Shown here piece by piece: positions 203 to 23,963 of a stretch of 64,000 nucleotides of DNA. How positions within the stretch are numbered: position 1 is the stretch's first letter; every line of letters starts with the position of its first letter. Where the stretch lies: NCBI GenBank assembly GCA_963665755.1, contig OY762445.1:23926-87925 (forward strand), read 5' to 3'. The notes under the pieces are model-generated. The model did not search any database. It saw only the letters and a program-made list of their open reading frames with translations, and had not been told where the DNA came from. Both the position numbers and the translations under genes were made by a program. This DNA comes from a bacterium. GTDB taxonomy: Bacteria > JAAXHH01.

Positions 203-238
203 TAAGAAGCATTAATCCACTAAGAAGCATTAAACCAC
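203..238. repeat. 18-bp tandem duplication of the SGNH gene 3' end
   Basis: taagaagcattaatccac / taagaagcattaaaccac. Confidence 0.85.
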
Positions 239-816
239 CACTCCGGCCACCGGAGCACCAGTTCCGCCAGCGCGGAGTATCCGCCTTCGCCCGGATGAAC
301 CCGGTCACCGAGTGTGGCTTCGCTCCGCCAGACCCTACCGGCATTCAGATCATGTATCACCTCGAGGTAGGGCACGCCGAGTCTTCCGGCAATTTCGCCG
401 ATGAGCGAGGAAACCTCTACCCTGCGGCCGTGTTCCTCCTCGTCGATCCCGGGCGGCGGTCCGATCATCAATGTGGGCAAAAGCGATCGCGCGCGTGACA
501 GAATCTCATCGGTGTTGCGCACGGTATCGGCCCGTTCCACGCGCGGCTTCCCATCTATGAACCAGCAGTCGTTTGCACCGAAGCCGAAGACCACCCGGCC
601 GTCATGAGGTATCAAACGCCTGGCCTCCACTTCCCGTTCCCATCGCCGGAGCACGTCCGCGCTCGTGTCACCGCGAATGCCGAGATTGTAGCTCGTGATG
701 GAAGTCTCGTCGGACCTCGATGCGGCACACGCGCGCCCCGGCCATCCAAGAAAGGCGGGATCGCCGGTCCCGTTCACGTAGGAATCACCTATAAAGTATA
801 TACGGATGTCTTCCAT
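220..816 (-). CDS. SGNH/GDSL-family hydrolase
   Basis: Block I FIGDSY, block II NLGIRGDT, block III FGAND, block V DRVHP. Confidence 0.9.
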   Translation of the reverse strand: MEDIRIYFIGDSYVNGTGDPAFLGWPGRACAASRSDETSITSYNLGIRGDTSADVLRRWEREVEARRLIPHDGRVVFGFGANDCWFIDGKPRVERADTVRNTDEILSRARSLLPTLMIGPPPGIDEEEHGRRVEVSSLIGEIAGRLGVPYLEVIHDLNAGRVWRSEATLGDRVHPGEGGYSALAELVLRWPEWWFNAS

Positions 817-1066
817 AGATCCTTCCGTTCTCTCCGCTATGCCATCCTGCTTTGCTGAATATCCTCAAGTCTTCGGTCCCGGACGTGATTTCTGATCCGA
901 TCACGGAAGCCGAAAACGCCTTTAGCATACGAATTCCGAGTGTATTTATCAATTGCCAATTTCGTCGCAGCGTGGAAAATTGGTAATGGCCAGGTCAATG
1001 GGAGCCATGTATTGAAACACGTCGCATGACCGACGGATTATCCAGGCATTTCGGGAGAACGCCACC

Positions 1067-2074
1067 GTGCGCGGTTACGTCATCGAGAACAACCTGCTTC
1101 GTCAGGCGGAGCTTCCCGATCCTGTGGAACCCGGTCCCGGCGAAGCGCTCGTCAAGGTCCGGTCCGTATCATTGAACTACCGGGATCTCATGGTCGCCAG
1201 GGGCAGGTACGGAAGGCCGTATGAGGGTACGTTCGTAGCCGGTTCCGATATGGCGGGCGATGTGTTGGACACGGGGCCGGGGGTCGAGCACCTCCGGCCG
1301 GGCGACCGGGTGGTGAACGCGCCGTTCCTGCGATGGCCTGCCGGAAAACTCACAACAGACGGTATGAAGTCCCTGGTCGGAGCAGGCGGCGTGGACGGCG
1401 TTCTTTGTGAGCAGGTGCGCTATCCCGCGGCAGCCCTGGTTCCCATGCCGTCCCATTTCTCCTATAACGAAGGCGCGACGCTGCCCATCGCCGGGCTGAC
1501 CGCGTGGGCCTCGGTCGTGTCACAGGGTCATGTACTGGCTGGGGAGTGGGTCCTGCTTCACGGAACAGGCGGGGTTTCCGTGTTTGCCGCCCAGCTGGCC
1601 AGGATCGCGGGAGCGCGGGCTTTACTGACCACGTCTTCCGAAGATAAAGCCGGCAGGATGAAGGCAGCACTCGGCGTGGTGGAGACTTTCGATTACCGCG
1701 ACGACGACTGGCCTGAAAAGGTCCGGTCTTTCACCGGGGGCACGGGGGTCGACCTGGTCGTGGACGTGGCCGGCGGCCAGACCTTCGCCAATTCCCTCAA
1801 GGCCTGCGCGCTGCATGCCCGGGTATCGCTCGTGGGCATACTCGACGGCTTTGAAACCCGCCTCAATCCCTTCGATATCATCGGCCGTCAGATCCAGGTG
1901 CGCGGGATATACACTTCTTCGGCCGAAGACCTGCGCGACCTGGCAAGGGCCTGCGAGGCGTCGAAGCTCAGGCCCTGTATCGACCGCGTGTTTCCCTTCG
2001 ACGAAGTTCCCGCGGCCTACGACTACCTTGAATCCCAGCGGCACATCGGAAAGATCGTGTGCACGATATCCTGA
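1067..2074 (+). CDS. Medium-chain dehydrogenase/reductase (NAD(P)-dependent alcohol dehydrogenase / quinone reductase-like)
   Basis: SLNYRDL, SDMAG, HGTGGVS nucleotide-binding loop, C-terminal HIGKIV. Confidence 0.88.
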   Translation: MRGYVIENNLLRQAELPDPVEPGPGEALVKVRSVSLNYRDLMVARGRYGRPYEGTFVAGSDMAGDVLDTGPGVEHLRPGDRVVNAPFLRWPAGKLTTDGMKSLVGAGGVDGVLCEQVRYPAAALVPMPSHFSYNEGATLPIAGLTAWASVVSQGHVLAGEWVLLHGTGGVSVFAAQLARIAGARALLTTSSEDKAGRMKAALGVVETFDYRDDDWPEKVRSFTGGTGVDLVVDVAGGQTFANSLKACALHARVSLVGILDGFETRLNPFDIIGRQIQVRGIYTSSAEDLRDLARACEASKLRPCIDRVFPFDEVPAAYDYLESQRHIGKIVCTIS

Positions 2075-2190
2075 CGATTCTGCCTGGAGACACCGGAAAT
2101 ACCTAAAACCCGCGAAATGTTCGCTGCAGCAAAAGCTCTTCGCAAAAAAGCTCGCTAGCGACTTCCTCGCTCGAAATGTCCACTGGAAGT

Positions 2191-7840: not shown

Positions 7841-9637
7841 ATGATTCACCGCCTTCGTCGCCAGGCGCCGGTTTTTGTCGCGGCCGTACTTGCGCTGTCA
7901 TTCCTGCAATGCGGCGCGCAGCCAGATCCTGAAGAGGCCGAAGAAGGCAGCGGCCCCCAGTTGTTGTTCGGTCAGACCGCGGAGATGAAAGAGGCTGCCC
8001 ACGCCGCGTTGATGGAACGTCTTCCAGATGATACCGCGCCCCTGGAGTACCAGGTGTTCCGGTACATGGCCGCCGAACCAAAGAGCATGGACCAGGGCGT
8101 CTCGATTTACGTGGCCGGCGGGAGCGAATTCCACTTCGAAAGGCTCGCCATGTTCGGTGTGAATGGGGAGCTCATCCCGGGCGCGGCGGATTCCTGGGAG
8201 ACCACGGAAGACGGGAAGACGTGGACCTTTCACCTGCGCCGGGACGCACGGTGGAGCGACGGACGGCCCGTCACCGCGCACGATTTCGAATTCACCTTCA
8301 AGCGGTTCCTCCATCCGAACGCGGGCAACGTTTACGCCTTTCTCTACTACGATATCAAGGGCGCCCGGGCGTACAACCAGCGGGAAACGGACGATGTCGA
8401 CACCGTGGGGGTCCGGGCCGTAGACGACTATACCCTGGTCATCGAGACGGAACAATCCTGCGCCTTCCTGCCCCATATCACCGCCTACCTGACCTCCGCG
8501 CCCGTTCCCCCGTGGCAGGTCGAGAAGTACGGAGACCAGTGGGCGCTCGCCGGCACCTGCCTGACCAACGGGCCCTTTCAACTCGAGACCTGGAAAACGG
8601 GCCAGTACATGACCTTCGGCCTGAATCCCCATTACTCCGGCCCCAATCCCGGCCATCTCCGCCAGATCGTACGCATATTCAACGCCATGGTCGGCTCGGT
8701 CAGCGCGTCGAACGACATGGGGCTTTTGCCCTACGAAAATGACGAGATCGATGTGATCGATATCAGCCCCATGGTCTACGGCGGCCTGCGCGACGACCCG
8801 GAGTGGAACGAACCCGCGTGGACATACGACCAGTTCACGACGATCTACCTGTTCTTCCGGACGCGACAGCCCCCCTTCGACAACCTCAAGGTCCGCCAGG
8901 CCTTCGCCCATGCCATCGACAAGGTGTCGTTGAACGAGACGATTCTCCAGGACATGATGATTCCCGCCTATACCATGCTACCGCTCCATTTCCCCGGTTA
9001 CGTCGGGGACAAATACCAGGAACACCAGCGGTTCGACGTGGAACTCGCCCGGCAACTGCTCGCGGAGGCGGGCTATCCGGGCGGCAGGGGTTTCCCGCGG
9101 ATGGATATCTGGCTCGCCGACGCGACGCCCGCTTCTTCCATCAGCCAGGCGGCCCAGGCGTTACAGGAGATGCTCAAGGAGAATCTGAATATCCAGATCG
9201 GCATCCGGAACACGGAAGGGGCCGCGTACCGGTCGGCCATGTACAACTGGGACATGCCCATGAGCATCGTCGGTTTCAACTACGACTTCCCCGATCCCCA
9301 CAGTATGCTCGGCATCATCTGGCGTTCACAGCCCAGGGGCTATACCCGCCACGACTGGCTGAATCCGGACTTCGACCGGCTGATCGACATGGCCGCCGGG
9401 GAGCTGAATCACGAGGCCCGCATGGCCATGTACGACGAGGCCGAGGGGATTCTTGCCTCCGAGGCCGCCGCGGTCTTCCTGTGGCATGTCAATACCTACC
9501 AGTTGCGCAAGCCGTGGTTGAAGGGGTTCAAGGAAGACCGGTGGGGTAATTTTCCCAATTACCGGAACGCGGGCACGTACTACGACCTCTACATCGGGCA
9601 GGAGGCGGTGACAAGCGATCGGCGTATAGATTACTGA
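7841..9637 (+). CDS. ABC transporter substrate-binding protein, family 5 (OppA/DppA-like), probable lipoprotein
   Basis: PGAADSWE..DGKTWTFHLR..WSDG.PVTAHDF, PPFDN.KVRQAF; hydrophobic N-terminus ending LSFLQC. Confidence 0.9.
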   Translation: MIHRLRRQAPVFVAAVLALSFLQCGAQPDPEEAEEGSGPQLLFGQTAEMKEAAHAALMERLPDDTAPLEYQVFRYMAAEPKSMDQGVSIYVAGGSEFHFERLAMFGVNGELIPGAADSWETTEDGKTWTFHLRRDARWSDGRPVTAHDFEFTFKRFLHPNAGNVYAFLYYDIKGARAYNQRETDDVDTVGVRAVDDYTLVIETEQSCAFLPHITAYLTSAPVPPWQVEKYGDQWALAGTCLTNGPFQLETWKTGQYMTFGLNPHYSGPNPGHLRQIVRIFNAMVGSVSASNDMGLLPYENDEIDVIDISPMVYGGLRDDPEWNEPAWTYDQFTTIYLFFRTRQPPFDNLKVRQAFAHAIDKVSLNETILQDMMIPAYTMLPLHFPGYVGDKYQEHQRFDVELARQLLAEAGYPGGRGFPRMDIWLADATPASSISQAAQALQEMLKENLNIQIGIRNTEGAAYRSAMYNWDMPMSIVGFNYDFPDPHSMLGIIWRSQPRGYTRHDWLNPDFDRLIDMAAGELNHEARMAMYDEAEGILASEAAAVFLWHVNTYQLRKPWLKGFKEDRWGNFPNYRNAGTYYDLYIGQEAVTSDRRIDY

Positions 9638-9650
9638 AGCAACCGGCGAT

Positions 9651-9718
9651 GATCGCGTCCGGCGACGTTCGCGCCCGGCCTTCAGATCGCGTCCTGCGAC
9701 TAACACGCCCGGCCTTCG
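9651..9718. repeat. 34-bp imperfect tandem duplication downstream of the SBP gene
   Basis: gatcgcgtccggcgacgttcgcgcccggccttca / gatcgcgtcctgcgactaacacgcccggccttcg. Confidence 0.8.
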
Positions 9719-9814
9719 GATTGACCGCGTGATTCGCATTGAAGCAACGGTTTTTTCCCCGGGCAAGCAGGATTGACCGAATAACTGAGAAAACGGAAAC
9801 GGACAGGCTCACCC

Positions 9815-10639
9815 ATGGAAAACGAACACCAGTACACCGAGATGACCGACGCGCAGCGTGAGCATCTGGACCAGTACGGCTATCTGGTTATCGAAGACGC
9901 GTTGCCCCCAGCCGTTGTAGGGGAGTTGAACGAGGGTATCGACGAAGTGTACGACAGGGCCCGGATCGAAGGCAAGCTGGGGGATAAAGACGATTTGAAC
10001 ATGCGGAACTGCATCGTGGCCCATGACGCCTTCCTGCAGTTGCTTGACTGGCCCGCAACCGTCCCCCTGGCCTGGGGCGCGCTCAGCTGGAACATCCAGA
10101 TGATCACCTCCCACCTGATCGTGCTGCCATCTGGGCCGGAGCCCTCGGAGGATGATAAGCGAGGTCACGGCATGCACCGGGATGGCGGCCGGTCTTTCGT
10201 TGAAATGCAGGAGCCCCATCCCCGCATATTGTTGAAGATCGCCTACGTACTCAGCGACCAGACGGACCCGGCATCGGGCGCCACGGCCCTGGTGCCCGGC
10301 AGCAACCGGATTACAGGCCAGCCGCCCACGGACCCGGCCACGGGCTGGCCCTACGGCGCCATTAGGATGAACCTTCCAGCAGGCAGCGCCTTCCTGTTTG
10401 AACAGCGGACCTTTCACAGCATTGGGCGCAACTGGTGCGGCCAAGATCGCAGGACCATCTTCATGGGCTACGCGTACCGCTGGGTGAAACCCATGGACTA
10501 CATCCAGATGCCCAAGTCGCTCGTGAACCGGTGTACCCCTCTCCAGAAACAGCTGATCGGCGAGGTGGGGGATGCGATCAGCTACTATCTGCCCGAAGAA
10601 GAGGACGTTCCCCTGAAGGCCTTTCTCGACGGGAAATGA
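9815..10639 (+). CDS. Phytanoyl-CoA dioxygenase (PhyH) family Fe(II)/2-oxoglutarate dioxygenase
   Basis: QYGYLVIEDAL, HRD, VPGSN, distal FH, RRT. Confidence 0.88.
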   Translation: MENEHQYTEMTDAQREHLDQYGYLVIEDALPPAVVGELNEGIDEVYDRARIEGKLGDKDDLNMRNCIVAHDAFLQLLDWPATVPLAWGALSWNIQMITSHLIVLPSGPEPSEDDKRGHGMHRDGGRSFVEMQEPHPRILLKIAYVLSDQTDPASGATALVPGSNRITGQPPTDPATGWPYGAIRMNLPAGSAFLFEQRTFHSIGRNWCGQDRRTIFMGYAYRWVKPMDYIQMPKSLVNRCTPLQKQLIGEVGDAISYYLPEEEDVPLKAFLDGK

Positions 10640-10648
10640 GATCTACCC

Positions 10649-12004
10649 ATGGCCAATGTCCTCCTGCTCATCTCCGACGAGCATAATCCCTTTTACTCTT
10701 CCGTGTACGGCCATCCTTTCGTTCAGACCCCAGCCATGGACCTGCTCGCGGAGAACGGGGTCGTCTACGAGAGCGCCTACTGTCCCTCGCCCCTGTGCAC
10801 GCCCAGCAGGTCCGCCTTCATGTCGGGGCGCCGGGTCCACCAGATACAGACCTATTCCAACTGCACAATCGGCGTGGAACCGGATATACCGACCTATGGA
10901 CGTGCCCTGGCCGAACAGGGGATACATTCCGTGCACGTGGGCAAGACGCACGTCTTCGCGCCGAGCAGCGCACTGGGATTCCAGGAGACGCGGCGCGCCA
11001 CGGAGAAAGCGGGCGCCGGCGACCCCGAGATCGGACGCCGGCCGTTCCGGATCAGACAGGCCGCCGCGGAGCGGGCATCCCAGTTCGGGGTGAAGGAATC
11101 CCATCTCCAGGTAGACATAGACCGCGTCGACGCCGCCATAGACTGGCTGACGAATACCGCCCCGAAACTCGGAAGACCGTGGACGCTCTCGGTTAACGTT
11201 ATAAATCCCCATTTCCCTCACTATACCTCGCAGGAACTCTGGAATCTCTATCCGCAGGGTGGCGATCTTCCGGGATACGGCCCGGATCGGGAGACCGCGA
11301 ACCACCCCAGGGCCCGGGAAGTCCGGGCGCACTTTCAGACGGACGCGTTCACCGAGGAACAGGTACGGGGACAGCGGCGGGGATACCTGGCGTGCGCGAC
11401 CTTCGTGGACCGGCAGCTGGCGCGGCTCATCGAAGCATTGAAGGCATCGGGACAGTATGACGATACGAATGTCATTTACACATCGGACCACGGTGAAATG
11501 CTCGGCAAGTTCGGCATGTGGTGGAAGTGTTCCCTCTATGAAGACGCGAGCCGGATCCCCTGCATCGCGGCGGGCCCCGGCTTCTCATCGGGTATCCGTG
11601 TAACGACGCCGGTGGACCTCCATGACGTGCAGGCGAGTCTGTTCGAATCGACCGGCGCTGAACGACCGCCGGACTGGGTAGGCCACCCGTTGCAGCGCCT
11701 GGCGGAAAGCGATGATCAGCGTGTCGTGTTCTCCGAGTATCATGGCCACGGGGTCAGGCACAGCGCTTTCATGATCCGAAAGGGCAAATGGAAGTACCTG
11801 CATCACGTGGAAGCGCCCCACCAGTTGTTCGACCTGGAAAAGGATCCCCATGAGCTGGAAAACCTGTACGGACAATTTCCGGACGTAGCTGCCGATCTGG
11901 AGAGGGAACTCCGCGCGATCTGCGATCCGGAAGCGGAGAACGACCGCGCGGACCGTTTCATCGAAACGCAACTCGCGGCCATGTCGTCGAGTGGCCCATC
12001 GTAG
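10649..12004 (+). CDS. Sulfatase, choline-sulfatase-like
   Basis: SDEH, CTPSR, GKTH, TSDHGEMLG..GMWWK. Confidence 0.9.
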   Translation: MANVLLLISDEHNPFYSSVYGHPFVQTPAMDLLAENGVVYESAYCPSPLCTPSRSAFMSGRRVHQIQTYSNCTIGVEPDIPTYGRALAEQGIHSVHVGKTHVFAPSSALGFQETRRATEKAGAGDPEIGRRPFRIRQAAAERASQFGVKESHLQVDIDRVDAAIDWLTNTAPKLGRPWTLSVNVINPHFPHYTSQELWNLYPQGGDLPGYGPDRETANHPRAREVRAHFQTDAFTEEQVRGQRRGYLACATFVDRQLARLIEALKASGQYDDTNVIYTSDHGEMLGKFGMWWKCSLYEDASRIPCIAAGPGFSSGIRVTTPVDLHDVQASLFESTGAERPPDWVGHPLQRLAESDDQRVVFSEYHGHGVRHSAFMIRKGKWKYLHHVEAPHQLFDLEKDPHELENLYGQFPDVAADLERELRAICDPEAENDRADRFIETQLAAMSSSGPS

Positions 12005-12031
12005 CGAGCCCATCGTAACAAGCCCATCTGA
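11994..12031. repeat. 14-bp-period triplication spanning the stop codon
   Basis: gcccatcgTAGcga gcccatcgTAAcaa gcccatcTGA. Confidence 0.75.
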
Positions 12032-12049
12032 GTACGCAACCGGAGCGAA

Positions 12050-13459
12050 ATGAGCGGGAAACGATTGCTGGGAATAACCGTCCTGGCCGACTTCATCCTG
12101 AACGAGGGGGTGGAGTCCGTGCTGGACAATCTCGTCGAACGGGCCGGCGCCACGGCCGTGGCGCTGAATCCCACGGTGACCGCGCCGTCGGAGGTAGGGG
12201 CCGGTTCCTTCCAGCCTCCCACCGACGCCGGAAGCAGTCCAAGGCTCTTCGATCGTCCCCTGTGGGGCCGGCGCTCGCTCTGGGTCCGTAGCGCGCCCAG
12301 CTATCACCCCCGGATCCCGTACTATGCCGATACCCCGTACAAGCCCCGCGAGCCGAACGAGTTGACCGACGAGCATGGTGATCTGGTCGGACGTTTCATC
12401 GACGCGGCCCTGGGCCGGGGACTCAAGGTCTACCTGCAGTTGAGCGGCGCGACGCCGCCCGGACTCCTGGACGACGACCGGCCGCGACGGCCGGATGGAC
12501 AACTGCCGGACCGCATGGCCGACACGGGATGTCTCGCCAGCGAGGCGATCCGGGCTTACATCGCGGCCTACGTGCGCGACCTGTTGGAGCAGTACCCTCG
12601 GATTACAGGGTTCCGGCCGGACTGGCCCGAGTATCCCTGTTACAAGCTGGACGAGGCCTTTCAGGATTTCAATCCACAGGTGGCGCACTGGGCGGCGGCC
12701 CATGGATTCGACTACGGGTCCATGCACCGGGAGGTCCTGGCGGCGTTCGAATATCTGCACGGACGGCTCGAGAACGGTGATCTGCTGGACTTCAGCGGTC
12801 TCGGCCGGGGCGCGGCGACGCTGGCCGAACTGCTCCGTTCCTCACCGGGTATCTTGGAGTGGATGCGCCTTAAATCCGCCCTGTCCAACGACCTGCTGCG
12901 CCACTGGAGGACCGTCGTCACGGCCCACGGCGGACCCGAAAAGGAGGTGTCGGCCAACGCCTTCATGCTTCCGCTCACCCTGTGGACGGGCTTCGACTTC
13001 CGTGAAGCGGCGAAACTTTGCGACGCCGTCTCCCCCAAGCTGTACACCATGCACTGGTCGGTCATGGTGGAATTCTGGGGGCGGGTACTCCTGAAGCACA
13101 ATCCCGGTCTGGACGAGCGGCTTCTGGTGCGTTCGCTCGCCCATCTCTTCGACCTGGGCGATGAAATCACGGCCACGCGCATCGATCAGTACAGGTATCC
13201 CGAGCCCGACGAGCCCCATCCCATTCCCGACGACGTCCAGAGGAGGCGGATCGAGCAGGTCTGCGCCGAAGTGAGCGGCCGCGCGCTGGTCACCCCGCTG
13301 ATGCATGGTTACGGCCCGCACCACGACTTCGTCCGGCGTTTCAGGGTGGTGGCGGAAAGTCCGGCCGATGGCGTATGGATCAATCGTTACGGGTACCTCA
13401 GCGACGAAAAGCTGGACGCGGTGGGGCGCATCTGGCGGCAGGTCCGGCGGCCGTCTTGA
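12050..13459 (+). CDS. Hypothetical protein, possible glycoside hydrolase-like TIM barrel
   Basis: Long GC3-biased ORF in the operon. GLKVY and CLASEAIRAY..VRDLLEQYP.ITGFRPDWPEY resemble GHL10/DUF187-type barrels. Confidence 0.6.
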   Translation: MSGKRLLGITVLADFILNEGVESVLDNLVERAGATAVALNPTVTAPSEVGAGSFQPPTDAGSSPRLFDRPLWGRRSLWVRSAPSYHPRIPYYADTPYKPREPNELTDEHGDLVGRFIDAALGRGLKVYLQLSGATPPGLLDDDRPRRPDGQLPDRMADTGCLASEAIRAYIAAYVRDLLEQYPRITGFRPDWPEYPCYKLDEAFQDFNPQVAHWAAAHGFDYGSMHREVLAAFEYLHGRLENGDLLDFSGLGRGAATLAELLRSSPGILEWMRLKSALSNDLLRHWRTVVTAHGGPEKEVSANAFMLPLTLWTGFDFREAAKLCDAVSPKLYTMHWSVMVEFWGRVLLKHNPGLDERLLVRSLAHLFDLGDEITATRIDQYRYPEPDEPHPIPDDVQRRRIEQVCAEVSGRALVTPLMHGYGPHHDFVRRFRVVAESPADGVWINRYGYLSDEKLDAVGRIWRQVRRPS

Positions 13460-13496
13460 CAACGCTTGTCGGACGCGGTGGGGCGCATTTGGCGGC
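13414..13496. repeat. 26-bp direct repeat (57-bp period) copying the gene 3' region past the stop
   Basis: ggacgcggtggggcgcatCtggcggc at 13414 vs ggacgcggtggggcgcatTtggcggc at 13471. Confidence 0.85.
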
Positions 13497-13514
13497 GCAG
13501 TCGAAAGGACTCCA

Positions 13515-15041
13515 ATGACCCGTCCCAACATTCTTTTCATCATGACGGACCAGCAGCGCTTCGATACCATCGCCGCGCTGGAGAACGACGTCATCCACAC
13601 GCCCAACCTGGATCGCCTGGTGCGCCGGGGTGTCTCCTTTACCCGGGGCTACTCGACCTGCCCCGTCTGCGTGGCGGCGCGGACGACCATCCGCACCGGC
13701 TGTGACCCGCCCACGACCCGCGTTTTCAGCAACGGCCGGTCCGCTCCTGTGCCTGGTCAGGCCGATACGCTCGAGGGCCGATGCGGGGACTATCTGGCTC
13801 GAACCCTGTCGGCGATGGGTTACCGAACCTTCGGCGTGGGAAAGTTCCACACGGCCCCTTGGGACGAAGACATCGGATATGAGTCCCAGTTGCACAGCGA
13901 GGAGCTTTACGCGAGCCCGCGTCAGCGTCGGGAGGAAGCCTACGCGGGATGGATTGCGCGGGAACATCCGGAATTCGACTATATCGAAGCGCTCATGGGG
14001 GAACGGACTGAGATGTACTACATGCCCCAGGCGAGTCCACTGCCCGCCCACCTGACCGTGGAATCCTGGGCGGCGGACCGCTCGATCGAGGCGTTGCAGC
14101 ATCCCGGCGATCGGCCGTTCTTCGGCTTCGTGTCCTTCATCGGTCCCCATCCGCCCTTCGCGCCGCCCGTACCCTTCAACCGGATCTACGATCCCGACCG
14201 TATGCCCGGTCCGGTGCGCGGCGAAAAGGCGGTGGACCACATGGACGAGCAGATACCCTTCATGAACCGGATCATCTGGGCGGACGAGATCAACGATGCC
14301 TTGACACGGACCCTAAAGGCCCGTTATTACGGAGAGATCACCTACATCGACGATTGCCTGGGACGGATACTGGACGCCGTCGAGGCCAGGGCGGACGCCG
14401 ATGACACGCTCATCTGCTTTTTCTCGGACCACGGCGACCATCTCGGCGACCATACGGCGTGGCAGAAGGAGAGCTTCTTCGACGTTTCGGCACGGGTGCC
14501 ATTCCTGGTAAGCTGGCCCGCCCGGCTGCCGCGGGATGTCCGCCGAGACGACCTGGTCTGCCTGACCGATCTGTTTGCCATCGCCACCCATGCCGCTGGA
14601 CAGACCCAGGTGCGCGACGGCGTCGACGTACTCGGCGCAATTGAAGGCAGCGTCTCGCCGAGGGAGTGCCTCTTCGGATATTACGGCGAGCCGGGAACGG
14701 ACCGGTTCAAAATCATGGTCCGAAGCGGAGACTGGAAGTACATTTACCTGGCCAACGGAGGCGGGGAGCAACTCTTCAATACGGTCGAAGACCCCGCCGA
14801 GATCGCGAACAGGATCGAGGTCGATCGGGACGTGGCGGACGGTCTGTACCGCCGCGCAGTGGAGGCCTGCGGCCATCCGGGCGCTACCGATGCCCTGGAC
14901 GGCGAGAACCTGCGGTACTTTCCCTACACCAGGTGGAAGGCCTCGCGGATATACCAGTTTGACCGTTCGCGGGACGTGCGGGGGTTTCCCGGGCATCCTC
15001 GCGAAGTGCTGGGTCCCTGGGTCCGTCGCGGCCGCAGATAA
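13515..15041 (+). CDS. Sulfatase with non-canonical CxAxR motif
   Basis: MTRPNILFIMTDQQR, CVAAR, GKFH, GPHPPF, SDHGD; AAGGA SD before ATG 13515. Confidence 0.9.
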   Translation: MTRPNILFIMTDQQRFDTIAALENDVIHTPNLDRLVRRGVSFTRGYSTCPVCVAARTTIRTGCDPPTTRVFSNGRSAPVPGQADTLEGRCGDYLARTLSAMGYRTFGVGKFHTAPWDEDIGYESQLHSEELYASPRQRREEAYAGWIAREHPEFDYIEALMGERTEMYYMPQASPLPAHLTVESWAADRSIEALQHPGDRPFFGFVSFIGPHPPFAPPVPFNRIYDPDRMPGPVRGEKAVDHMDEQIPFMNRIIWADEINDALTRTLKARYYGEITYIDDCLGRILDAVEARADADDTLICFFSDHGDHLGDHTAWQKESFFDVSARVPFLVSWPARLPRDVRRDDLVCLTDLFAIATHAAGQTQVRDGVDVLGAIEGSVSPRECLFGYYGEPGTDRFKIMVRSGDWKYIYLANGGGEQLFNTVEDPAEIANRIEVDRDVADGLYRRAVEACGHPGATDALDGENLRYFPYTRWKASRIYQFDRSRDVRGFPGHPREVLGPWVRRGRR

Positions 15042-15110
15042 GAACCAGCGCGGCCGGAGATAAGAACGGTATCGGCCGCAAATAAGAAGCGGCACGGCCG
15101 GAGACAAGTC
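15029..15110. repeat. 22-bp-period four-copy repeat spanning the sulfatase stop codon
   Basis: Units at 15029, 15051, 15073, 15095: cggccgcagataagaa / cggccggagataagaa / cggccgcaaataagaa / cggccggagacaag. Confidence 0.85.
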
Positions 15111-15179
15111 TCAGGTTTTCCCCGCAATGTCATTCGCGGGAATCCGCGCTCGAATGGGCGCAGAGGAAGAGTTCATACC

Positions 15180-16526
15180 GTGAACCCCGTTGATACATCC
15201 ACCGCAGTCCCGGCATCGGTCATGCCTTCCGCGGGGGGCGACCCGGTCCCCGTCCCGGCGTTTCACGTGATGATGAAACCTCGGGGGGCCATCTGCAATC
15301 TAGACTGCAAGTACTGCTACTTCCTCGCGAAGGAGGACCTGTACCCGGGCAGTGGATTCCGCATGTCCGAAAACCTGCTCGAAGAATACGTCCGGCAGTA
15401 CATCGAGGCCCAGCAGGTACCGGAAGTCACCTTTGCCTGGCAGGGCGGCGAGCCCACGCTCATGGGACTGGACTTCTTCCGCAAAGCCGTTGAATTCCAG
15501 AAAAAACACCAGAAACCGGGAACGCGGCTATTCAACTCGCTGCAGACCAATGGTACGCTCCTCGACCGGGACTGGTGCCGGTTCTTTCATGAGAACGATT
15601 TCCTGATCGGTCTTAGCCTGGACGGCCCCCGGGCGCTGCACGACGCCTACCGGGTCGACAAGGGCGGCAAGCCGACCTTCGACACCGTGATGCGCGCCGC
15701 CGAGATGATGCAGTCCCACGAGGTCGAATTCAACATTCTGACCACGGTGCACGCGGCGAACGCGGGGCACCCCGTTGAAGTCTATCGCTTCATGCGGGAC
15801 GTGGTGAAGACCCGCTTTATCCAGTTCATTCCCATCGTGGAACGGGACAACGAGACAGGGTACCAGGAAGGCAACGAAGTGACGAACCGGTCGGTGACGG
15901 GGAAGCAGTACGGCCGGTTCCTGATCGGGATTTTCGACGAATGGGTACGCCGGGACGTGGGGAATATGTACGTGCAGATATTCGACGTGTCGCTCGCGGC
16001 CTGGTCGGGCCAGAGCCCGGGTCTCTGCATATTCATGGAGACCTGCGGCGATGCCCTCGCCCTGGAGCACAACGGGGATCTATATTCCTGTGATCACTAT
16101 GTCGAACCGGATTACAGGCTGGGAAATATCACCGAAATACCCATGATGGATATGGTCCTGTCTGAACAGCAGCGGGCCTTTGGACAGGCCAAACTGGACA
16201 CGCTTCCTCAATACTGCCTGTCATGCGACGTGCGGTTCATCTGCAACGGGGGTTGTCCGAAGAATCGTATCATAAACACGCCCGACGGCGAACCGGGCCT
16301 GAACTACCTGTGCGAGGGGTACAAGGCCTTCTTCCACCACATCGACGGACCCATGCGGTTCATGGCCAATGAACTGCGCCACAGGCGGGCTCCCGCCAAC
16401 GTGATGTCGTACATCCGCCAGCGCGAATCCGAACTTCACAGACAGCAGCAGTTTCAATCGGTGGGGCGAAACGACCCCTGTCCGTGCGGAAGCGGCCTCA
16501 AATACAAGCGGTGCCACGGCAGGTAG
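15180..16526 (+). CDS. Anaerobic sulfatase maturase (radical SAM/SPASM, AslB/AtsB-like) with C-terminal SEC-C motif
   Basis: CNLDCKYC, WQGGEP, YSCDH, SPASM cysteines, GRNDPCPCGSGLKYKRCHG. Confidence 0.95.
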   Translation: MNPVDTSTAVPASVMPSAGGDPVPVPAFHVMMKPRGAICNLDCKYCYFLAKEDLYPGSGFRMSENLLEEYVRQYIEAQQVPEVTFAWQGGEPTLMGLDFFRKAVEFQKKHQKPGTRLFNSLQTNGTLLDRDWCRFFHENDFLIGLSLDGPRALHDAYRVDKGGKPTFDTVMRAAEMMQSHEVEFNILTTVHAANAGHPVEVYRFMRDVVKTRFIQFIPIVERDNETGYQEGNEVTNRSVTGKQYGRFLIGIFDEWVRRDVGNMYVQIFDVSLAAWSGQSPGLCIFMETCGDALALEHNGDLYSCDHYVEPDYRLGNITEIPMMDMVLSEQQRAFGQAKLDTLPQYCLSCDVRFICNGGCPKNRIINTPDGEPGLNYLCEGYKAFFHHIDGPMRFMANELRHRRAPANVMSYIRQRESELHRQQQFQSVGRNDPCPCGSGLKYKRCHGR

Positions 16527-16594
16527 GACGGCTTGCCTGCATACCGCCCGGCACCAGCCGGGACAGGGTCCGGACGACCGATCCTTAATTCAAA

Positions 16595-17248
16595 TCACAT
16601 ATAGTAGCCGCGTTCCACCGCGAGGGTCAGGGAAAGCTCGATATCCGAAATCGCCCTCGACATGGCCTGGCCGATGAGGTCCAGCTTGCGCACCTGGTCG
16701 ATGCGTTCGGTGGCCTGCGCGAGTTCCCGCGAGGACAGGATCTCCTTGAAGAGATTGCACGCGTGGGCGAGGTTGATGATCACGACGTCGCGCGGACCGG
16801 GGATCTTTTCGCTGAACAGCACTTCCATGATCCGGAGCTTGACTTCACGCTCGGCCGTTCCGTCGATGGTGGGATAGCGCCGCGACCGGAACACCCACAG
16901 GAAATTCCCTTCTTCCCTGCTCAGGATACCCCGTTCCACGAGCCGGTCGATAGCCGTCTCTCGGATGTCGTCGGCACGGTCGACCGCGTGTTCGATCCAG
17001 TACCGAGCCCCATGCGTTTCGGGTGAGGCCGAGATATCCGCCAAAATGGGGTCGAGGAGATTGTCGCCCAGGGGGTTAGAGTCCACGAGGACCAGCTTGT
17101 CGACATCGGTATCGATACGGTTCTCGAGTGCCAGGTCCATCAGAACGCCTCCGGCAAGGCCATACCGCAAGAGGCGGTCGGGCACCCCCAGGAACTTCCC
17201 GTCGTCGTCGAGCGTCAGCAACATGATCTCTTCCGCGAATCTTAACAT
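16595..17248 (-). CDS. GPP34 / GOLPH3-Vps74 family protein
   Basis: FAEEIMLL, LAGGVLMDLAL.NRI, LVERGIL...FLWVF..RYP; start MLRF after a GGAG SD. Confidence 0.8.
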   Translation of the reverse strand: MLRFAEEIMLLTLDDDGKFLGVPDRLLRYGLAGGVLMDLALENRIDTDVDKLVLVDSNPLGDNLLDPILADISASPETHGARYWIEHAVDRADDIRETAIDRLVERGILSREEGNFLWVFRSRRYPTIDGTAEREVKLRIMEVLFSEKIPGPRDVVIINLAHACNLFKEILSSRELAQATERIDQVRKLDLIGQAMSRAISDIELSLTLAVERGYYM

Positions 17249-17446
17249 CTTCTCTCCCGGTTTGAAATTCGTTTTAGTGCATGCCGCAGGCGGGCGACCC
17301 TGGCATCTCCGAAGTTTCTCATGTATCAATAGCCATCCTGAATAGCCATCTTGAATTCACTTATCAAATTGAAGTTTTTTATACGTGTCCATTTTCGCGC
17401 CTGCTGTCAAGAGAATTAGACCCCTGTCGAGGGCCGACGATCCGCT

Positions 17447-19852
17447 TCAGAAATGACGTGCCAGTTCCACGCCCCAGTAGGGCGGTTCGTTTACGAATCC
17501 GGTCAGGTTGTTGAAATCGATACCGCCGGTGAGGGACACGTCGTCAAATATGTTTCTGCCGACCAGGGAGATCTCCAGTCCGGACCCCCGCGCCAGATAG
17601 GAGAGGCGGACCCCGCATTCCAACAGCCGATCGTCCTGAAACTCCACGGATTCGTATAGAAAGAACCGGACCGCGCTACGGTAGGCCAGGTCGGCCGTGG
17701 CCACCAGGTATGAGCCGTCCGGCAGGAGCACGGGGTAGCGCAGGATGGCGTCCGTGATCCACCTGGGCGCCTGGGGCAGGCCGTTGCCGTCAATCCTGAC
17801 CGTGCCGGGTTCCCGCCCCGGGGGATCCAGCACGGTACATGGGGCGTCGCATCCCTGCACGGCGAGGTCGTCATCTTCTATACGGGTATGATTATAGCTC
17901 AGTCCGGTCGTAATGTGCAGCCGGCCCGCCGGTGCGAGGGTTACTTCCGCTTCGAAACCCCTCCCCAGGGTCCGGTCCGCGTTTACCAACCGGTTGAAAT
18001 TGGCTTCGCCGCCTACCGCGGTGAGTTGCTGGTTGTGGAGACGGTAGTGAAATGCGGCCAGGTCGAGGCGAAGCCGTCCGTCCCAAAGGCGCATTTTCGT
18101 TCCGCCTTCGATGGAGTATATGGTCTCGGTCCCTGCCACGGAGACCATGTCGCCGAACAGAAGGCGTCCCTGAATACTCGGCGCGCGGAACCCCCTGGCG
18201 GCGCGTAAGTACGTCTGCACGCCGGATGAGACCGTATAACGCATGCTCAGGTCGCCGCTCCACGCGCTGTCGGTGGGACTGCGGTGTATCGGTCCGATCC
18301 CACCGGCCCCGGAGACCGATGGCGCTTCGACCCTCCTGGCGGTGTAGTCCTTCGCGTCACGGGAAAACCGCAACCCCCCGCCGATCTCCACGGGATCGCC
18401 CAGGTGCAGGGTGGATGCCAGAAACGCGGCCCATGCCTCGGCCTTCTGGTGTTGCCGGGTGTATCCGTCCTGCGTTCCACCGGCCAGGGTATCGTAGTTG
18501 AAGTCGTCTAGGTCGACCGACTCGTGCAGGTAGTACAGGCCGAACAGGTAATCGAGACGCCGGTGTTCCTGGCTGACCAGCCGGATTTCCTGGCTGACCT
18601 GGCGCAGGAAGGGGATGCCCCCCGCCGTTTCGGAAGGAAATGGAATCACGCCCGGGCCGCTGGGTGGACTGAACGCCGCACCGTAGCCGCCGTCTATGTC
18701 TCCGCGCGAGAAACTCTCGAGCCGCTCCATGCCGGTCAGCGAAACCAGTTCGTGGGTACCCGTCCGGTAGCGTACCTCTACCATCATTCCATGGGAATTC
18801 AATTCCCGTGTGTTGCGTCCATCGATCGCGATGTGATCACGGGAGAATCCTTCCGTCAGTCCGCCCCGGTCCGGTACGATGACGTTGGCGCGGAACAAAC
18901 GGGCGGAGCCGTCGAGTTCCCTGCCATGGATATTGACCAGCGTTTCAAGATCCGACGCGGGTTTCCAGCGCAACTGAAATCGTCCGGCCAGTTCCAGGTA
19001 CCCCCCGAGCGCTGCATTCGGACCATCGTGTTCGTTGTCCACCCAGTCGCCCCGCCGCTGCGCCAGCACCGAAAGACGGGCGGTGAGTTCCGGCGATCCG
19101 AGCGGTCCGGATACCGCCCCTTCGAAAGTGGCGCTGTTGAATCGCCCGTAACCCAGGCGGCCGAAACCTTCCGGCTCCTCGGTCGGCCGTGCAGATTCCA
19201 GCTTGACGATACCGGCCGGCGTGTTCCGGCCGAAAAGCGAACCCTGGGGACCGCGAAGCACCTCGATCCGGTCGAGGTCGAAGGCGGGATAGCCCTTCAA
19301 CAACGCGTTCTCGAGTACGATGCCGTCGTAGACCACGGAAACAGGCTGCGAAGCGTTCAGGTCGAAGTCCGTGTTGCCCAGACCCCGAATGTAAAAGCGG
19401 GGGAAAATCCGGCCGTAGGAGGACTCCATATGCAAACTGGGAACCCGGTTCGAAAGGAATCGAAGGTCCATGCCCGATGAACGGAGCACGGCGGACTTCC
19501 CTTCCTGTATCGTGGATAGGGAAAGCGGGACTTCGAATGCGGGTTGTTCACGCTTCCGCGCGGTGACCACGACCTCTTCCATCAGGATCGGTGCGCCGGT
19601 CGTGCCGAGGGTTTCCCCGTCGTCTTCGTCCTGTGGTGCGCCGGCCGTGCCGCGTGGGTCCGCTTCGTCCGTGTCCTGTGGTGCGCCGGCCGAGGTGCGT
19701 GGGTCCGTGGCCTGCGCGGCCGAATTGTTCGTTGTGTATACCAGGATCAGGGTCAGGACGGTCAGGACCGCCAGCAAAAAAACGGTTTCCGCCTTGCGTT
19801 TCCGCGATGTCTGAACGGAATTCAATGTACGGTTCATAGTCGGTGTAATCAT
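17447..19852 (-). CDS. TonB-dependent receptor
   Basis: Signal peptide, EEVVVTARKRE, RIEVLRGPQGSLFGRN, C-terminal F; start could be 19837. Confidence 0.93.
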   Translation of the reverse strand: MITPTMNRTLNSVQTSRKRKAETVFLLAVLTVLTLILVYTTNNSAAQATDPRTSAGAPQDTDEADPRGTAGAPQDEDDGETLGTTGAPILMEEVVVTARKREQPAFEVPLSLSTIQEGKSAVLRSSGMDLRFLSNRVPSLHMESSYGRIFPRFYIRGLGNTDFDLNASQPVSVVYDGIVLENALLKGYPAFDLDRIEVLRGPQGSLFGRNTPAGIVKLESARPTEEPEGFGRLGYGRFNSATFEGAVSGPLGSPELTARLSVLAQRRGDWVDNEHDGPNAALGGYLELAGRFQLRWKPASDLETLVNIHGRELDGSARLFRANVIVPDRGGLTEGFSRDHIAIDGRNTRELNSHGMMVEVRYRTGTHELVSLTGMERLESFSRGDIDGGYGAAFSPPSGPGVIPFPSETAGGIPFLRQVSQEIRLVSQEHRRLDYLFGLYYLHESVDLDDFNYDTLAGGTQDGYTRQHQKAEAWAAFLASTLHLGDPVEIGGGLRFSRDAKDYTARRVEAPSVSGAGGIGPIHRSPTDSAWSGDLSMRYTVSSGVQTYLRAARGFRAPSIQGRLLFGDMVSVAGTETIYSIEGGTKMRLWDGRLRLDLAAFHYRLHNQQLTAVGGEANFNRLVNADRTLGRGFEAEVTLAPAGRLHITTGLSYNHTRIEDDDLAVQGCDAPCTVLDPPGREPGTVRIDGNGLPQAPRWITDAILRYPVLLPDGSYLVATADLAYRSAVRFFLYESVEFQDDRLLECGVRLSYLARGSGLEISLVGRNIFDDVSLTGGIDFNNLTGFVNEPPYWGVELARHF
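19590..19707. repeat. 45-bp in-frame repeat (about 2.6 copies) in the TonB receptor N-terminal linker
   Basis: Encodes DPRTSAGAPQD / DPRGTAGAPQD / LGTTGAP. Confidence 0.8.
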
Positions 19853-20125: not shown

Positions 20126-20802
20126 ATGATATCGAAGTCTGCCATCCCCGCATCGGTCCTGTGCATGCTGGCATACCTTTCCTTCCCGTCGGATTCTTCC
20201 GCAATGGCCGGGGAAAACCGCAGCCGCCAGGGTTTCTACTTCGTATTGCAGGCCGGCGTATCGTCCCGGGCGACGAAAAGCAGGCGGAGTTTGTCGAACG
20301 CAGCGAGCAGATCAGCGATTTTCGGACCGACAACCTCTTCGCGAACATCTACTATGAATTCAACGGACGGCTTTCACGGGACGCCACGCCGCACCTCGGC
20401 GCGGGAGCGGGTGTGACGAGACAGCGGATGTTCTATTCCGCGGCGTCTATCCGGACGAACGACAGGGAACGGATGCGGCAGCTCGGACGCAACCCGCATG
20501 CGGCCGAACTGGCTTCACTGGCCGACGAAACGCTATCGGACAGGATGCTCGGATTCCAGTTTGTCGCGGGTGTGGACTATGCCATGGGCGAGCGGTTTTA
20601 GGCCGGCCTTAAACTGAGGTACGGCCGGACCGGTGAGTTTCTGGACGGCGAGAACCGCTGGAGGCTGCTGCGCGGGCACGAATCCACCGTGGGACCGACA
20701 TCGGAAACCGACTCCGATATGCCGGTTCTATACGAAATCAAAGGAAGCCCCGCTCAATTCTGGGGTATATCCCTGGGCCTGCGGTACCATATCGGAGGCT
20801 AG
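20126..20802 (+). pseudogene. Outer-membrane beta-barrel (opacity/surface-antigen-like) pseudogene
   Basis: Signal peptide and GFYFVLQAG in one frame. Shift near 20270 to NLFANIYYEF..PHLGAGAG..GFQFVAGVDY. In-frame TAG at 20599-20601, then the frame continues to FWGISLGLRYHIGG-stop. Confidence 0.75.
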
Positions 20803-20910: not shown

Positions 20911-20938
20911 GACGTTTTTTTCGGGGACCTGTGCCGCT

Positions 20939-21301: not shown

Positions 21302-21331
21302 CTAATAAATCAAAACCGCCTTGAATGTCAA
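21302..21331 (-). promoter_or_regulatory. Putative cspA promoter giving a long 5' UTR
   Basis: TTGACA at 21331-21326, AT-rich -10 region near 21308-21302; about 155-nt leader as in csp genes. Confidence 0.45.
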
Positions 21332-21387
21332 CACTTTTTTCTTTTTGCGGCGTAATCGCGATCAATCCGGTCGCCTGCGACAGCCTA

Positions 21388-23004
21388 TCATTCCACACGC
21401 TCGATCCGTGCTTCCATCAGCATCCAGCCGACCTGATCGACCAGGACTTCATCGGGTGCTCCGTCCAGTTTGAAGCGAAATACGTGGGACCGGTCGCGCA
21501 GCTCGACCCGCCGCCGCTGTTCTTGATCCCCAACCGCGAAGGCCATGGTGAGGGGCAGCCGGAAAGGCTCCTGCCGCTGGGTCTGCCGGACCTGCATGGC
21601 GACTTCCCCGGTTCCCTCGTCCCAGGACCAGGTCGCCTCGACCACGGGATGTCCCGCACGGTAAATCCACTGTTCGAAGAACCAATCAAGCGTACTCCCG
21701 TACCGGGTTTCCATGACGGCCTGGAAATCCCCGGTCAACACGGTCTGATCGCGGAATTCGCGGTAGAAGCGCCGGATGCCGTCGAAAAAGGCTTCGTCGC
21801 CCATCAGGCCCCTCAGCATGTGGAGCACCAACCCGCCCTTGCTGTAATTGTACGCGTTCAACAGGTCGAACAGGTCCGTTATCGCAGGATTGATTATGGA
21901 CGCGGGAGCGCGGCGGTACGCTTCGATATACCGGGCCCTGCTCCGGGACAGCATTTCGTGAAACCGCTCGTTCCCTTCGGCTTCTTCGAAAAACAGGGCG
22001 CCGAAATAGGTGGCGAACCCTTCGCTGAGCCACAGGTGGTGCCAGTCGGACTCGGTCACCGAGTCGCCGAACCACTGGTGGGCGATCTCGTGGGCGATCA
22101 CGGCCTCGTTCCGTTTTGTGCCCGTTATGCCCTTCTCCGAAAAGAAGATGGCACTTGCGTTCTCCATGCCGCCGAACCGGGTGGAAGACTGTACCAGCGC
22201 GAGTTTCGTATAGGGATAGGGTCCAATCAGTTCGGTGTAGAAGGCCAGCATGTCCGTGGAACGGGAAAAATCCGTTATTCCCGCGTCCCGGTCGCCGGGA
22301 AAGAGGTAGTATGAAACGGGGATCCCCTGCCAGGACCCGGGTCGGATAATGGAAAATCGCGCCGCGCCGACGACCATGCAGTACGTGGGGATGGGCGCGT
22401 CGGTCTTCCAGTGCGTTCGTTTCATTTCCGGCGAGACGGCCGTCGTTTCCAACAGACGGCCATTGGCCACTACGTCGTAGGCCGCGGGCGCGGTGACGAT
22501 GAATTCGGCCGTGGCCTTGTCATAGGGGTGATCCACCCCGGGGAACCAGTGCCGGGCCCGGTTCGGCCAGTTGTCCGCGAATACCGACCGGTCCCCGAAC
22601 TTGTTCGCCTGTATGAACAGGCCGTCCACGGGCTCGCCGTGATAGATCACTGCCACCGCAACCGTGTCGCCCTCGGCATGGCCGTCCCCCAGCGCAATGC
22701 GCAACCGGCCGTCCCGGTGCTCAAAAGCCGCGATTTCGCCGTCGACCGTCACCCGGTCCACGGTCAGCGCGACCAGGTCGAGGGGCAGGACGTCCCGTCC
22801 GCCGGCCAGCATCACCGCCCGGATCGTGGTTTCGCCCTGGATGGCCTTGCCTGTTTCGCCGATATCCAGACGGATCCGGTAATGGAGGATGTCCACGTCG
22901 TCCAGGCGGGTGTATCCGTCGCTGGCCAGGCCGGCAGCGGGCGTAAGGCCCGGGAGGAGCAGCACCGCCGTGATGATCCACTTAGTAGTCATCCACTTCT
23001 TCAT
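21388..23004 (-). CDS. M1-family aminopeptidase, secreted
   Basis: GGMEN, HEIAH-x18-E (WLSEGFA), YSKG; signal peptide; AAGGAGG SD before ATG 23004. Confidence 0.92.
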   Translation of the reverse strand: MKKWMTTKWIITAVLLLPGLTPAAGLASDGYTRLDDVDILHYRIRLDIGETGKAIQGETTIRAVMLAGGRDVLPLDLVALTVDRVTVDGEIAAFEHRDGRLRIALGDGHAEGDTVAVAVIYHGEPVDGLFIQANKFGDRSVFADNWPNRARHWFPGVDHPYDKATAEFIVTAPAAYDVVANGRLLETTAVSPEMKRTHWKTDAPIPTYCMVVGAARFSIIRPGSWQGIPVSYYLFPGDRDAGITDFSRSTDMLAFYTELIGPYPYTKLALVQSSTRFGGMENASAIFFSEKGITGTKRNEAVIAHEIAHQWFGDSVTESDWHHLWLSEGFATYFGALFFEEAEGNERFHEMLSRSRARYIEAYRRAPASIINPAITDLFDLLNAYNYSKGGLVLHMLRGLMGDEAFFDGIRRFYREFRDQTVLTGDFQAVMETRYGSTLDWFFEQWIYRAGHPVVEATWSWDEGTGEVAMQVRQTQRQEPFRLPLTMAFAVGDQEQRRRVELRDRSHVFRFKLDGAPDEVLVDQVGWMLMEARIERVE

Positions 23005-23017
23005 GTTGTGTTCCTCC

Positions 23018-23048
23018 TTGACACGTTTCGAGGTCTTTCTCATATATT
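23018..23048 (+). promoter_or_regulatory. Putative promoter of the PhyH gene; -35 overlaps the SD of the divergent peptidase
   Basis: TTGACA-N17-CATATA(TT). Confidence 0.45.
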
Positions 23049-23087
23049 CTCCGCACACTTCCATCCACAACGAAAGGGCTAAGGGAC

Positions 23088-23867
23088 ATGGTCCGTCTAA
23101 CCGAGGACGACATCCGTTTCTTCGTCCGCGAAGGCTACCTGATCAAGCGCGGCGTGCTGAACCCCGACCTGATGGCCCAGGGACGGGAACGCATGTGGCG
23201 GAATCTGCCGCCTCCCCTCGAACGCGGGAAACCGGCAACCTGGATCGGACCCTTTGTCGAACCGGTCGACGACGGCGCGTCCCACAGGCACAGGTTCATG
23301 TGGAAGTACCGGGAACCCGGCGGAGAGGACTGGATGGTGCGACTCCTCGCCACCGATCCTTCCGTGATGGGCATGGCGGAACAGCTCCTGGGGGAAGGAA
23401 TGCTGGTCGACCCCGATCGTATCCGCGGCATTTACTGCGTCCTGCCCGAGGGCGCCGCGCCGCCCCGTCCCATGGGTTGCCACGTGGACGCCCATCCCTT
23501 TCACCTCGGCGTCGTGGGATACATCGACGACGTGGGGCCGAAGGGCGGCGGATTCACCGTCTGGCCGGGCAGCCATCGGAAATTCTATCCCGATTTCCCC
23601 ACGCGGTACTGCTTCGAACGAACCCCCTCGTACCAGGCGCACCTGGAAGAGGTGAACCGGATGCCTTACGCAGACTGTCACGGCAATGCCGGAGACATCG
23701 TCTTCTGGCACCACCGCATGGGCCATTCCGTCGGCCACAACCGGTCCACGCGGATCCGCCAGGCGGTCCTCTACGACTACAAGCGGACGGACCTGGACGA
23801 GAACGCGCCTCCCGGCGACGACATGTGGGTGGACTGGCCCGGCGTCCGTGCCGTTTTAGCATCTTGA
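23088..23867 (+). CDS. Phytanoyl-CoA dioxygenase (PhyH) family protein
   Basis: LTEDDIRFFVREGYL, HVD, VWPGSH, GDIVFWH..MGHS, IRQA. Confidence 0.88.
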   Translation: MVRLTEDDIRFFVREGYLIKRGVLNPDLMAQGRERMWRNLPPPLERGKPATWIGPFVEPVDDGASHRHRFMWKYREPGGEDWMVRLLATDPSVMGMAEQLLGEGMLVDPDRIRGIYCVLPEGAAPPRPMGCHVDAHPFHLGVVGYIDDVGPKGGGFTVWPGSHRKFYPDFPTRYCFERTPSYQAHLEEVNRMPYADCHGNAGDIVFWHHRMGHSVGHNRSTRIRQAVLYDYKRTDLDENAPPGDDMWVDWPGVRAVLAS

Positions 23868-23959
23868 CATGTGGGTAGACTGGCCCGGCGTCCGTGCCGT
23901 TTTAGCATCTTGACATGTGGGTAGACTGGCCCGGCGTCCGTGCCATACTGGCGTCTTGA
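23820..23959. repeat. 46-bp tandem triplication of the last 15 codons plus stop of the PhyH gene
   Basis: Units at 23820, 23866, 23912: gacatgtgggt(g/a)gactggcccggcgtccgtgcc...tctt. Confidence 0.95.
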
Positions 23960-23963
23960 ATCC

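Follow-up and report, generated by a model that had tools for sequence, protein, structure and literature searches.

Duplicated gene ends in a sponge-associated bacterium as probable locus-specific variable-number tandem duplications of gene-boundary DNA

In a 64,000-nt stretch of bacterial DNA (the window; positions 23,926 to 87,925 of contig OY762445.1, assembly GCA_963665755.1), five genes have their terminal codons re-copied 3' of the gene. The window belongs to a metagenome-assembled genome of one contig (G000; 3.91 Mb, 60% G+C) in which tandem arrays lie across gene ends far more often than expected from random placement. We consider it very probable that these arrays are locus-specific variable-number tandem duplications of gene-boundary DNA, which slippage or unequal recombination would generate and selection would then filter. 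Copies beyond the stop codon, which had seemed to evolve like coding DNA, were found to change at a neutral rate.

Re-reading the sequence and the open reading frame (ORF) lists confirmed each of the five duplicated gene ends. Arrays were detected by Tandem Repeats Finder (TRF) on the window and on the genome, and the products of the five genes were named by Pfam. The five sites are listed below, together with two more arrays of the window that lie directly 3' of stops.

Site 1: 203..238, minus strand; gene end at 220 of the GDSL lipase gene 220-816; TRF 18 nt x 2.0, 94% match.
Site 2: 11994..12028, plus strand; end of the sulfatase gene 10649-12004; TRF 14 nt x 2.5, 90% match.
Site 3: 13414..13496, plus strand; end of the gene 12050-13459 (no Pfam match).
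Site 4: 15023..15108, plus strand; end of the sulfatase gene 13515-15041; TRF 22 nt x 3.9, 71% match.
Site 5: 23820..23959, plus strand; end of the PhyH-family gene 23088-23867; 46-nt unit x 3.
Further array: 9643..9721, plus strand; period 16/34; begins 6 nt 3' of the stop of the SBP_bac_5 gene 7841-9637.
Further array: 52094..52142, plus strand; 17 nt x 2.9; begins at the base after the stop 52091-52093.

At site 1 the live stop TAG (222-220) arises across the junction of both units, and the distal copy retains an older TAA that shares bases with the AGGAGG ribosome-binding site of the downstream gene. The units of site 2 bear TAG, TAA and TGA, while site 4 has TAA in units 1-3 and CAA in unit 4. 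Site 3, which is not among the TRF arrays, is a 26-nt copy without a stop codon (13414-13439 repeated as 13471-13496 with one mismatch, at an offset of 57 nt), and it belongs to a 57-nt insertion relative to the compact form found in relatives. Site 5 sits between convergent genes: its TRF array covers 23820-23944 (46 nt x 2.7, 98% match), a third, diverged tail extends to 23959, and this third copy bears an older tail (ATACTGGCGTCTTGA).

The duplicated gene ends are real and not products of the assembly. Strain mixing in a metagenome assembly had been named by the original prediction as an alternative, and two facts might seem to favor it or plain assembly error: the source genome is itself metagenome-assembled, and short-read contigs break at the 46-nt array of site 5. 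However, contigs of runs X15 and X17, both from other studies, are identical to the window over 9500-15449 and 9829-16690 respectively (0 differences), and thus independently confirm sites 2-4 and the array at 9643. The break at site 5 (contigs end at 23861 and restart at 23915) is what a 46-nt repeat would give; the junction between copies 1 and 2 is covered by a 67-nt contig, and a separate one-contig genome (G043) carries the same three copies. Moreover, more than 20 congeneric assemblies bear arrays at these gene ends. An artefactual origin of either kind can thus be set aside as having next to no probability. The runs that contain this stretch are mostly sponge metagenomes, and in one of them (X3) a related strain is shorter at site 5 by one 46-nt unit.

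The recurrence of repeats at gene ends, first noticed in five genes, extends to the whole genome, where arrays far exceed those of shuffled sequence and are enriched at stops. TRF gave 993 rows for the genome vs 122 and 108 in two controls (an order-3 Markov control and a block-shuffled control); for rows with a score of at least 50 and a period of at least 13, the counts were 595 vs 20 and 10. Placement was tested for 828 merged arrays against random placement, using gene calls from our own script (2978 genes, 84.5% coding): 105 arrays spanned a stop (26.5 expected), 31 a start (24.8 expected) and 14 both a stop and a start (10.2 expected), while 282 were intergenic (105.9 expected) and 396 lay within genes (660.6 expected). 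The counts for the 320 arrays with a period of at least 10 that is not a multiple of 3 were: stops 69 vs 9.9 expected, starts 17 vs 9.7, intergenic 160 vs 40.8 and inside genes 63 vs 256.2. About 4% of genes have their end inside an array. The arrays are evenly distributed along the chromosome, and a hot region near the window was considered and rejected, the stretch that holds the five sites being one of eight 25-kb windows with three stop-spanning arrays.

Although stops are enriched for arrays, the arrays are not sharply anchored there. Of the 80 stop-spanning arrays with a period not divisible by 3, 69 had the stop in their first unit, at positions distributed over all fifths of the unit (7, 13, 20, 16 and 11). 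In non-coding DNA behind stops, repeat density was 5.5% at +1-10, ~9% at +21-50 and ~8% out to +100; before starts it was ~6% at -60 to -130 and fell to 1.6% at -10. Repeat depletion is thus confined to the last ~40 nt before starts, and density is high across the whole 3' flank. A duplication process anchored at the stop codon, one of the two origins offered by the original prediction, finds no support in these figures: the stop lies anywhere in the first unit, and the density is lower at +1-10 than at +21-50.

The units are specific to their loci. In an all-against-all comparison of consensus units, 658 of 694 arrays were singletons, and since they match no other array they do not form a dispersed repeat family. 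No 9-mer was common at the gene ends of the genome. The idea that the duplicated ends share a motif or a small mobile element was likewise rejected: GCATCTTGA at site 5 resembles the site-3 spacer of relatives, but its 16 + 16 occurrences in the genome (32 on both strands) are about what chance would give.

What had made the copies beyond the stops look unusual was the kind of difference between them, which the original prediction described as mostly synonymous and ascribed to a coding-like history beyond neutral decay. Every difference that it listed is present (GTG/GTA, TTA/CTG, GCA/GCG, ATC/ATT, CGC/CGG and TAG/TAA, with V/I, R/K and F/I among the replacements), and a bias of this kind exists genome-wide; it is, however, only modest. 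Between the live copy and the next copy of 92 indel-free stop-spanning arrays, 46 differences were synonymous and 71 non-synonymous, where random change would give 27-31% synonymous (one-sided p 0.002-0.04 for the excess). By codon position, differences fell on 32/354 first, 31/377 second and 54/409 third positions, so that third positions took 54/117 (46%) of the differences vs 36% of the sites (p 0.014).

The source of the bias was found in a direct orthologous comparison of 39 stop-spanning arrays between G000 and G043 (1.2 Mb fetched, flanks 92-99% identical). Substitution at codon positions 1, 2 and 3 was 3.7, 1.9 and 11.9% in the upstream coding flank and 3.4, 0.6 and 6.6% in the live copy; at the virtual codon positions of the extra copies it was 8.7, 11.9 and 7.7%, which is flat (chi-square p 0.34), and in the remainder of the arrays it was 10.4%. 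The extra copies evolve neutrally, without coding constraint. As they are flat and change at the neutral rate, the bias between copies stems from the constrained live copy, which alone shifts the differences toward third positions; a coding-like history of the extra copies is not borne out. Taken together, the flank rates and the pooled extra-copy rate (53/565) predict per-site shares of 29, 25 and 47% for codon positions 1, 2 and 3 (our arithmetic), and the shares observed between copies were 30, 27 and 43%.

The number of copies turns over between close relatives. Of 747 arrays with a period of at least 10, 197 were located in the G043 sample: the length was the same for 67 of the 87 arrays within genes, for 10 of the 34 stop-spanning arrays (12 whole-unit changes and 12 other changes) and for 21 of the 63 intergenic arrays (22 whole-unit changes). 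As to other lineages, 400 kb of the congener G016 held 382 arrays per Mb and 18 stop-spanning arrays vs 5.0 expected; 220 kb of a genome of the same order (G026) held 45 arrays per Mb with none at stops, and G030 held 100 per Mb, its single stop-spanning array matching the expected 1.0. Stretches of 220 kb from the own genome gave 145-227 arrays per Mb. Another genome (G036; 28% G+C) was of little use as a comparator, having many low-complexity arrays.

Among congeners, the same five gene ends occur in compact and in expanded forms. Site 1 could be compared at the 20 of 25 loci that had both anchors: 11 are compact (57-58 nt), with a TAA or TGA stop inside the AGGAGG site of the next gene, and nine, G000 among them, exceed this length by 12, 18, 23 or 26 nt, the 12-nt form extending the protein in frame. 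Site 2 (25/30 loci) is compact in four, with an ATGA stop/start overlap, and longer in 21, mostly by 18-nt units that run from ATG to TGA; G000 and G043 have 14-nt units instead, similar to the repeated ribosome-binding region of G013. The 18-nt units of congeners contain in-frame stops, while the periods of 14, 22 and 46 nt in G000 shift later stops out of frame. Among the arrays seen at site 2, the longest belongs to one locus of G021 (L039): the spacer between the orthologues of 10649-12004 and 12050-13459 is filled by seven consecutive 18-nt units, most of which open with ATG or a near-start codon and close with TGA in frame.

At site 3 (28/30 loci), 11 loci from nine genomes are compact, with TAG or TAA inside the GAGGAAA site, and 16 loci, G000 included, bear the insertion of ~57 nt, whose distal copy retains the former stop and binding site. 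A duplication of 59 nt, distinct from this insertion and with nearly identical copies, is found in G013. The 24 bases of the insertion that are not duplicated might stem from the start and ribosome-binding site of the following gene by duplication and decay; compared by eye, they agreed at 10/18 positions in one relative and ~8/31 in the window. Site 4 (25/30 loci) has 22-, 28- and 32-nt units in different genomes. Site 5 has 1, ~1.5, 2 or 3 copies across the genus, with the junction TGA|CATGTGGG identical everywhere; more distant species are single-copy, the distal copy bears the older tail, and the proximal tails are of one shared type across genomes.

These alignments with the 3' ends of relatives support in part the proposal of the original prediction that the extra copies are former gene ends displaced from their genes. 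The distal copy is indeed the older end at sites 1, 3 and 5, where it is still joined to the old downstream context, and at site 5 single-copy close relatives use the distal-type tail as their live tail; as the general origin of the arrays, on the other hand, displacement is unlikely. The single-copy relatives were found in a comparison based on two query loci: G014, both flanks of which are 97-98% identical to G000, has one site-5 copy with a distal-type tail, and in G021, whose flanks match those of G017 at 96 and 94% identity, the lone copy ends in the distal-type tail found in G017 and G003. Which tail of the PhyH gene is live thus differs within two pairs of close relatives. Because the distal-type tail is live in single-copy relatives, slippage and decay would not suffice and contraction or shifted-register recombination is needed; by one of these routes the live C-terminal tail at site 5 appears to have been swapped at least twice. 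A broader role is possible, though we hold it rather doubtful: stop-spanning arrays might repeatedly swap the live copy, supply new C-terminal tails and give formerly overlapping or abutting gene pairs spacers. The pairs concerned are that with the ATGA overlap (site 2) and those in which the stop falls within the ribosome-binding site of the downstream gene (sites 1 and 3). No paper on the evolution of post-stop copies or on tail swapping turned up in word searches of an open-access library, which is not proof of absence.

The process that we consider very probable would run as follows. Replication slippage or unequal recombination would duplicate units of ~10-60 nt of gene-boundary DNA, and such arrays are frequent across the intergenic regions of the sponge-associated genus. 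An array with the stop in its first unit still gives the protein its correct end from the first copy, so the protein would be unchanged and the duplication would survive, as would duplications in the 3' flank. Selection would remove duplications that fall within genes, except those with a unit length divisible by 3, as well as those within the ~40 nt that precede a start. The extra copies, which decay at the neutral rate, would be untranslated relics; whole-unit gains and losses continue, and by contraction or shifted-register exchange another copy could become the live end.

Several observations weigh against this account or loosen it: i) the comparators for other lineages are small, 220-400 kb each from three other genomes; ii) the gene caller is crude and its start codons are unreliable, which makes the deficit at starts approximate; iii) live-copy rates taken from within the arrays, which have few sites, predict a third-position share of 37%, below the 43% observed; iv) 24 of 75 perfect two-copy arrays lack microhomology at their junctions; v) copies 2 and 3 of site 5 show no difference over 31 positions and then five over the next 15, and such a mosaic speaks for recombination over even decay; and vi) the five gene ends bear arrays in many congeners with differing unit lengths (12/18 nt at site 1, 14/18 at site 2, 22/28/32 at site 4), which suggests a site-specific propensity or self-perpetuating arrays and is not predicted by uniform mutation plus a filter. 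The junctions of the 75 two-copy arrays show some excess of 3-8 nt microhomology over a rough expectation; microhomology is not decisive, and the mechanism of duplication is not settled. A repair defect was rejected as the cause of frequent duplication, MutS, MutS2 and MutL, the genes looked at, being present.

The mosaic in copy 3 also speaks for a rival reading, in which the extra copy would be the recipient's own gene end, displaced by a diverged allele of another lineage in one crossover in shifted register, both copies having been coding while they diverged. The shared type of the proximal site-5 tails fits such a displacement, as do the distal tails, which match live tails of single-copy relatives (copy 3 of G000 that of G014; the distal tails of G017 and G003 those of G021 and G007), and so do two arrays of G000 (294637 and 322369) whose second copy is 13-17% diverged and at which G043 is single-copy. 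Identity along the G014 contig C180 also changes, from ~90% to G000 at 13836-15300 to ~98% at 23700-24080, near site 5 (G043: 93 and 97-98%), and this mosaic suggests DNA exchange between species of the genus. The same site-5 pattern would, however, be left by an old array with two tails that contracted in some lineages. Genome-wide the extra copies have no coding signature, the live copy accounting for the bias between copies, and whole-unit gains and losses are frequent between near-identical genomes, as expected of slippage in place. We regard displacement as an unlikely origin of the arrays.

Less likely still, and by a clear step, is that the arrays are functional and kept by selection, as back-up stops, relays for translational coupling, terminators or binding sites. 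Their presence at the same gene ends across the genus is in line with a function, and at site 2 the in-frame 18-nt ATG-to-TGA units of many congeners resemble the reading frames of mycobacterial interspersed repetitive units (MIRUs). But units from different loci are not related, close relatives vary in the length and number of units, and the extra copies change at the neutral rate. Arrays cover convergent spacers as densely as operon-type ones (3.9% of convergent, 3.8% of co-directional and 2.7% of divergent spacers). Folding z-scores against shuffles, for the five sites in order, were 0.25, -1.06, 1.00, 0.56 and -0.28, and an Rfam search of 1-25000 matched no family. The lack of a fold or Rfam signal, the neutral decay, the turnover and the equal density in convergent spacers together argue against a selected role.

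By their direct copies, whole-unit variation, local units and unconstrained extra copies, the arrays are locus-specific intergenic variable-number tandem repeats (VNTRs), or minisatellites. Three other assignments were rejected: a dispersed family of the MIRU type, as nearly all arrays match no other in sequence; palindromes of the repetitive extragenic palindrome/bacterial interspersed mosaic element (REP/BIME) or terminator type, as there was no stem-loop beyond composition and no Rfam match in 1-25000; and attachment-site duplication by an integrating element, as the two copies either adjoin or are separated by 31 nt and enclose no insert.

Passages of a survey of 5374 prokaryotic genomes report an excess of tandem repeats 5' of starts and 3' of stops, with few in genes, and take intergenic DNA to be more permissive or the repeats to have a regulatory role (Nucleic Acids Res 2025, PMC12418385). 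Those passages do not single out arrays with the stop in the first unit and do not treat the evolution of extra copies. The likeness to bacterial intergenic VNTRs ascribed to slipped-strand mispairing lies in the head-to-tail, locus-specific copies and in the whole-unit changes of number among close relatives. For the Borg elements of Methanoperedens, the relevant parts of one study (PLoS Biol 2023, PMC9879509) describe tandem repeats that are similar in having intergenic units mostly not multiples of 3 and genic units that always are, with independent origins and fast turnover; unlike the arrays here, the Borg units are described there as perfect, A-rich and nearly absent from the host chromosome, whereas our copies are diverged (63-100% match) and lie in chromosomal DNA of 60% G+C. 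MIRU-VNTRs, as summarized in passages of a later paper, overlap neighboring genes of a polycistron (Supply et al. 1997, via Genome Biol Evol 2011, PMC3184786). They are alike in their 40-100-nt tandem units between operon genes, small reading frames and variable copy number, and unlike in being, by that summary, one dispersed family of ~40-50 loci, possibly spread by transposition, as against the unrelated units of the arrays in G000.

The cause is an ordinary one, namely neutral, selection-filtered, locus-specific VNTRs, and end-swapping is the one modestly new point. The direct orthologous test removes an attractive but wrong inference, that DNA past a stop codon evolves like coding DNA. That ~4% of genes in a sponge-associated genus end within a dynamic array matters for gene-end annotation, strain typing and short-read assembly. 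The sites also give a concrete picture of how compact gene boundaries may gain spacers and C-terminal tails may be exchanged; spacer growth and tail exchange, the only part that goes past the textbook view, rest on few loci.

Two other repeats were seen in the window. A 45-nt tandem repeat at 19590-19692 (2.3 copies, 82% match) lies within the long minus-strand gene 17447-19777; its period is a multiple of 3, and 15 residues would repeat in the protein. An array of 13 nt x 2.2 at 17328-17356, in an A+T-rich spacer, adjoins the start of the minus-strand gene 16595-17248 (or 17329) and has equal length in G043.

Sites 2-4 lie in a sulfatase cluster (10649-16526), in which the sulfatase genes 10649-12004 and 13515-15041 flank a 469-aa gene without a Pfam match. 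A likely sulfatase-maturing enzyme, a radical-SAM/SPASM protein that has a SEC-C motif at its C terminus (15180-16526), belongs to the cluster as well; the sulfatase family has 31 matches in the genome.

Contigs of four runs end or jump at 16661-17153 and 22042-22108, with many loose contig ends at 16661 and 16705 and skips of 69-226 nt, and summed depth is ~2x that of the neighborhood at 16318-16804; contig depth and gaps were not used as evidence. These segments may be variable or common to other organisms. Finally, the contig of the related strain in X3 and a minor contig of X17 skip 188 nt at 20163-20352, within or beside the weakly supported ORF 20161-20601, and this skip is a deletion polymorphism between strains.

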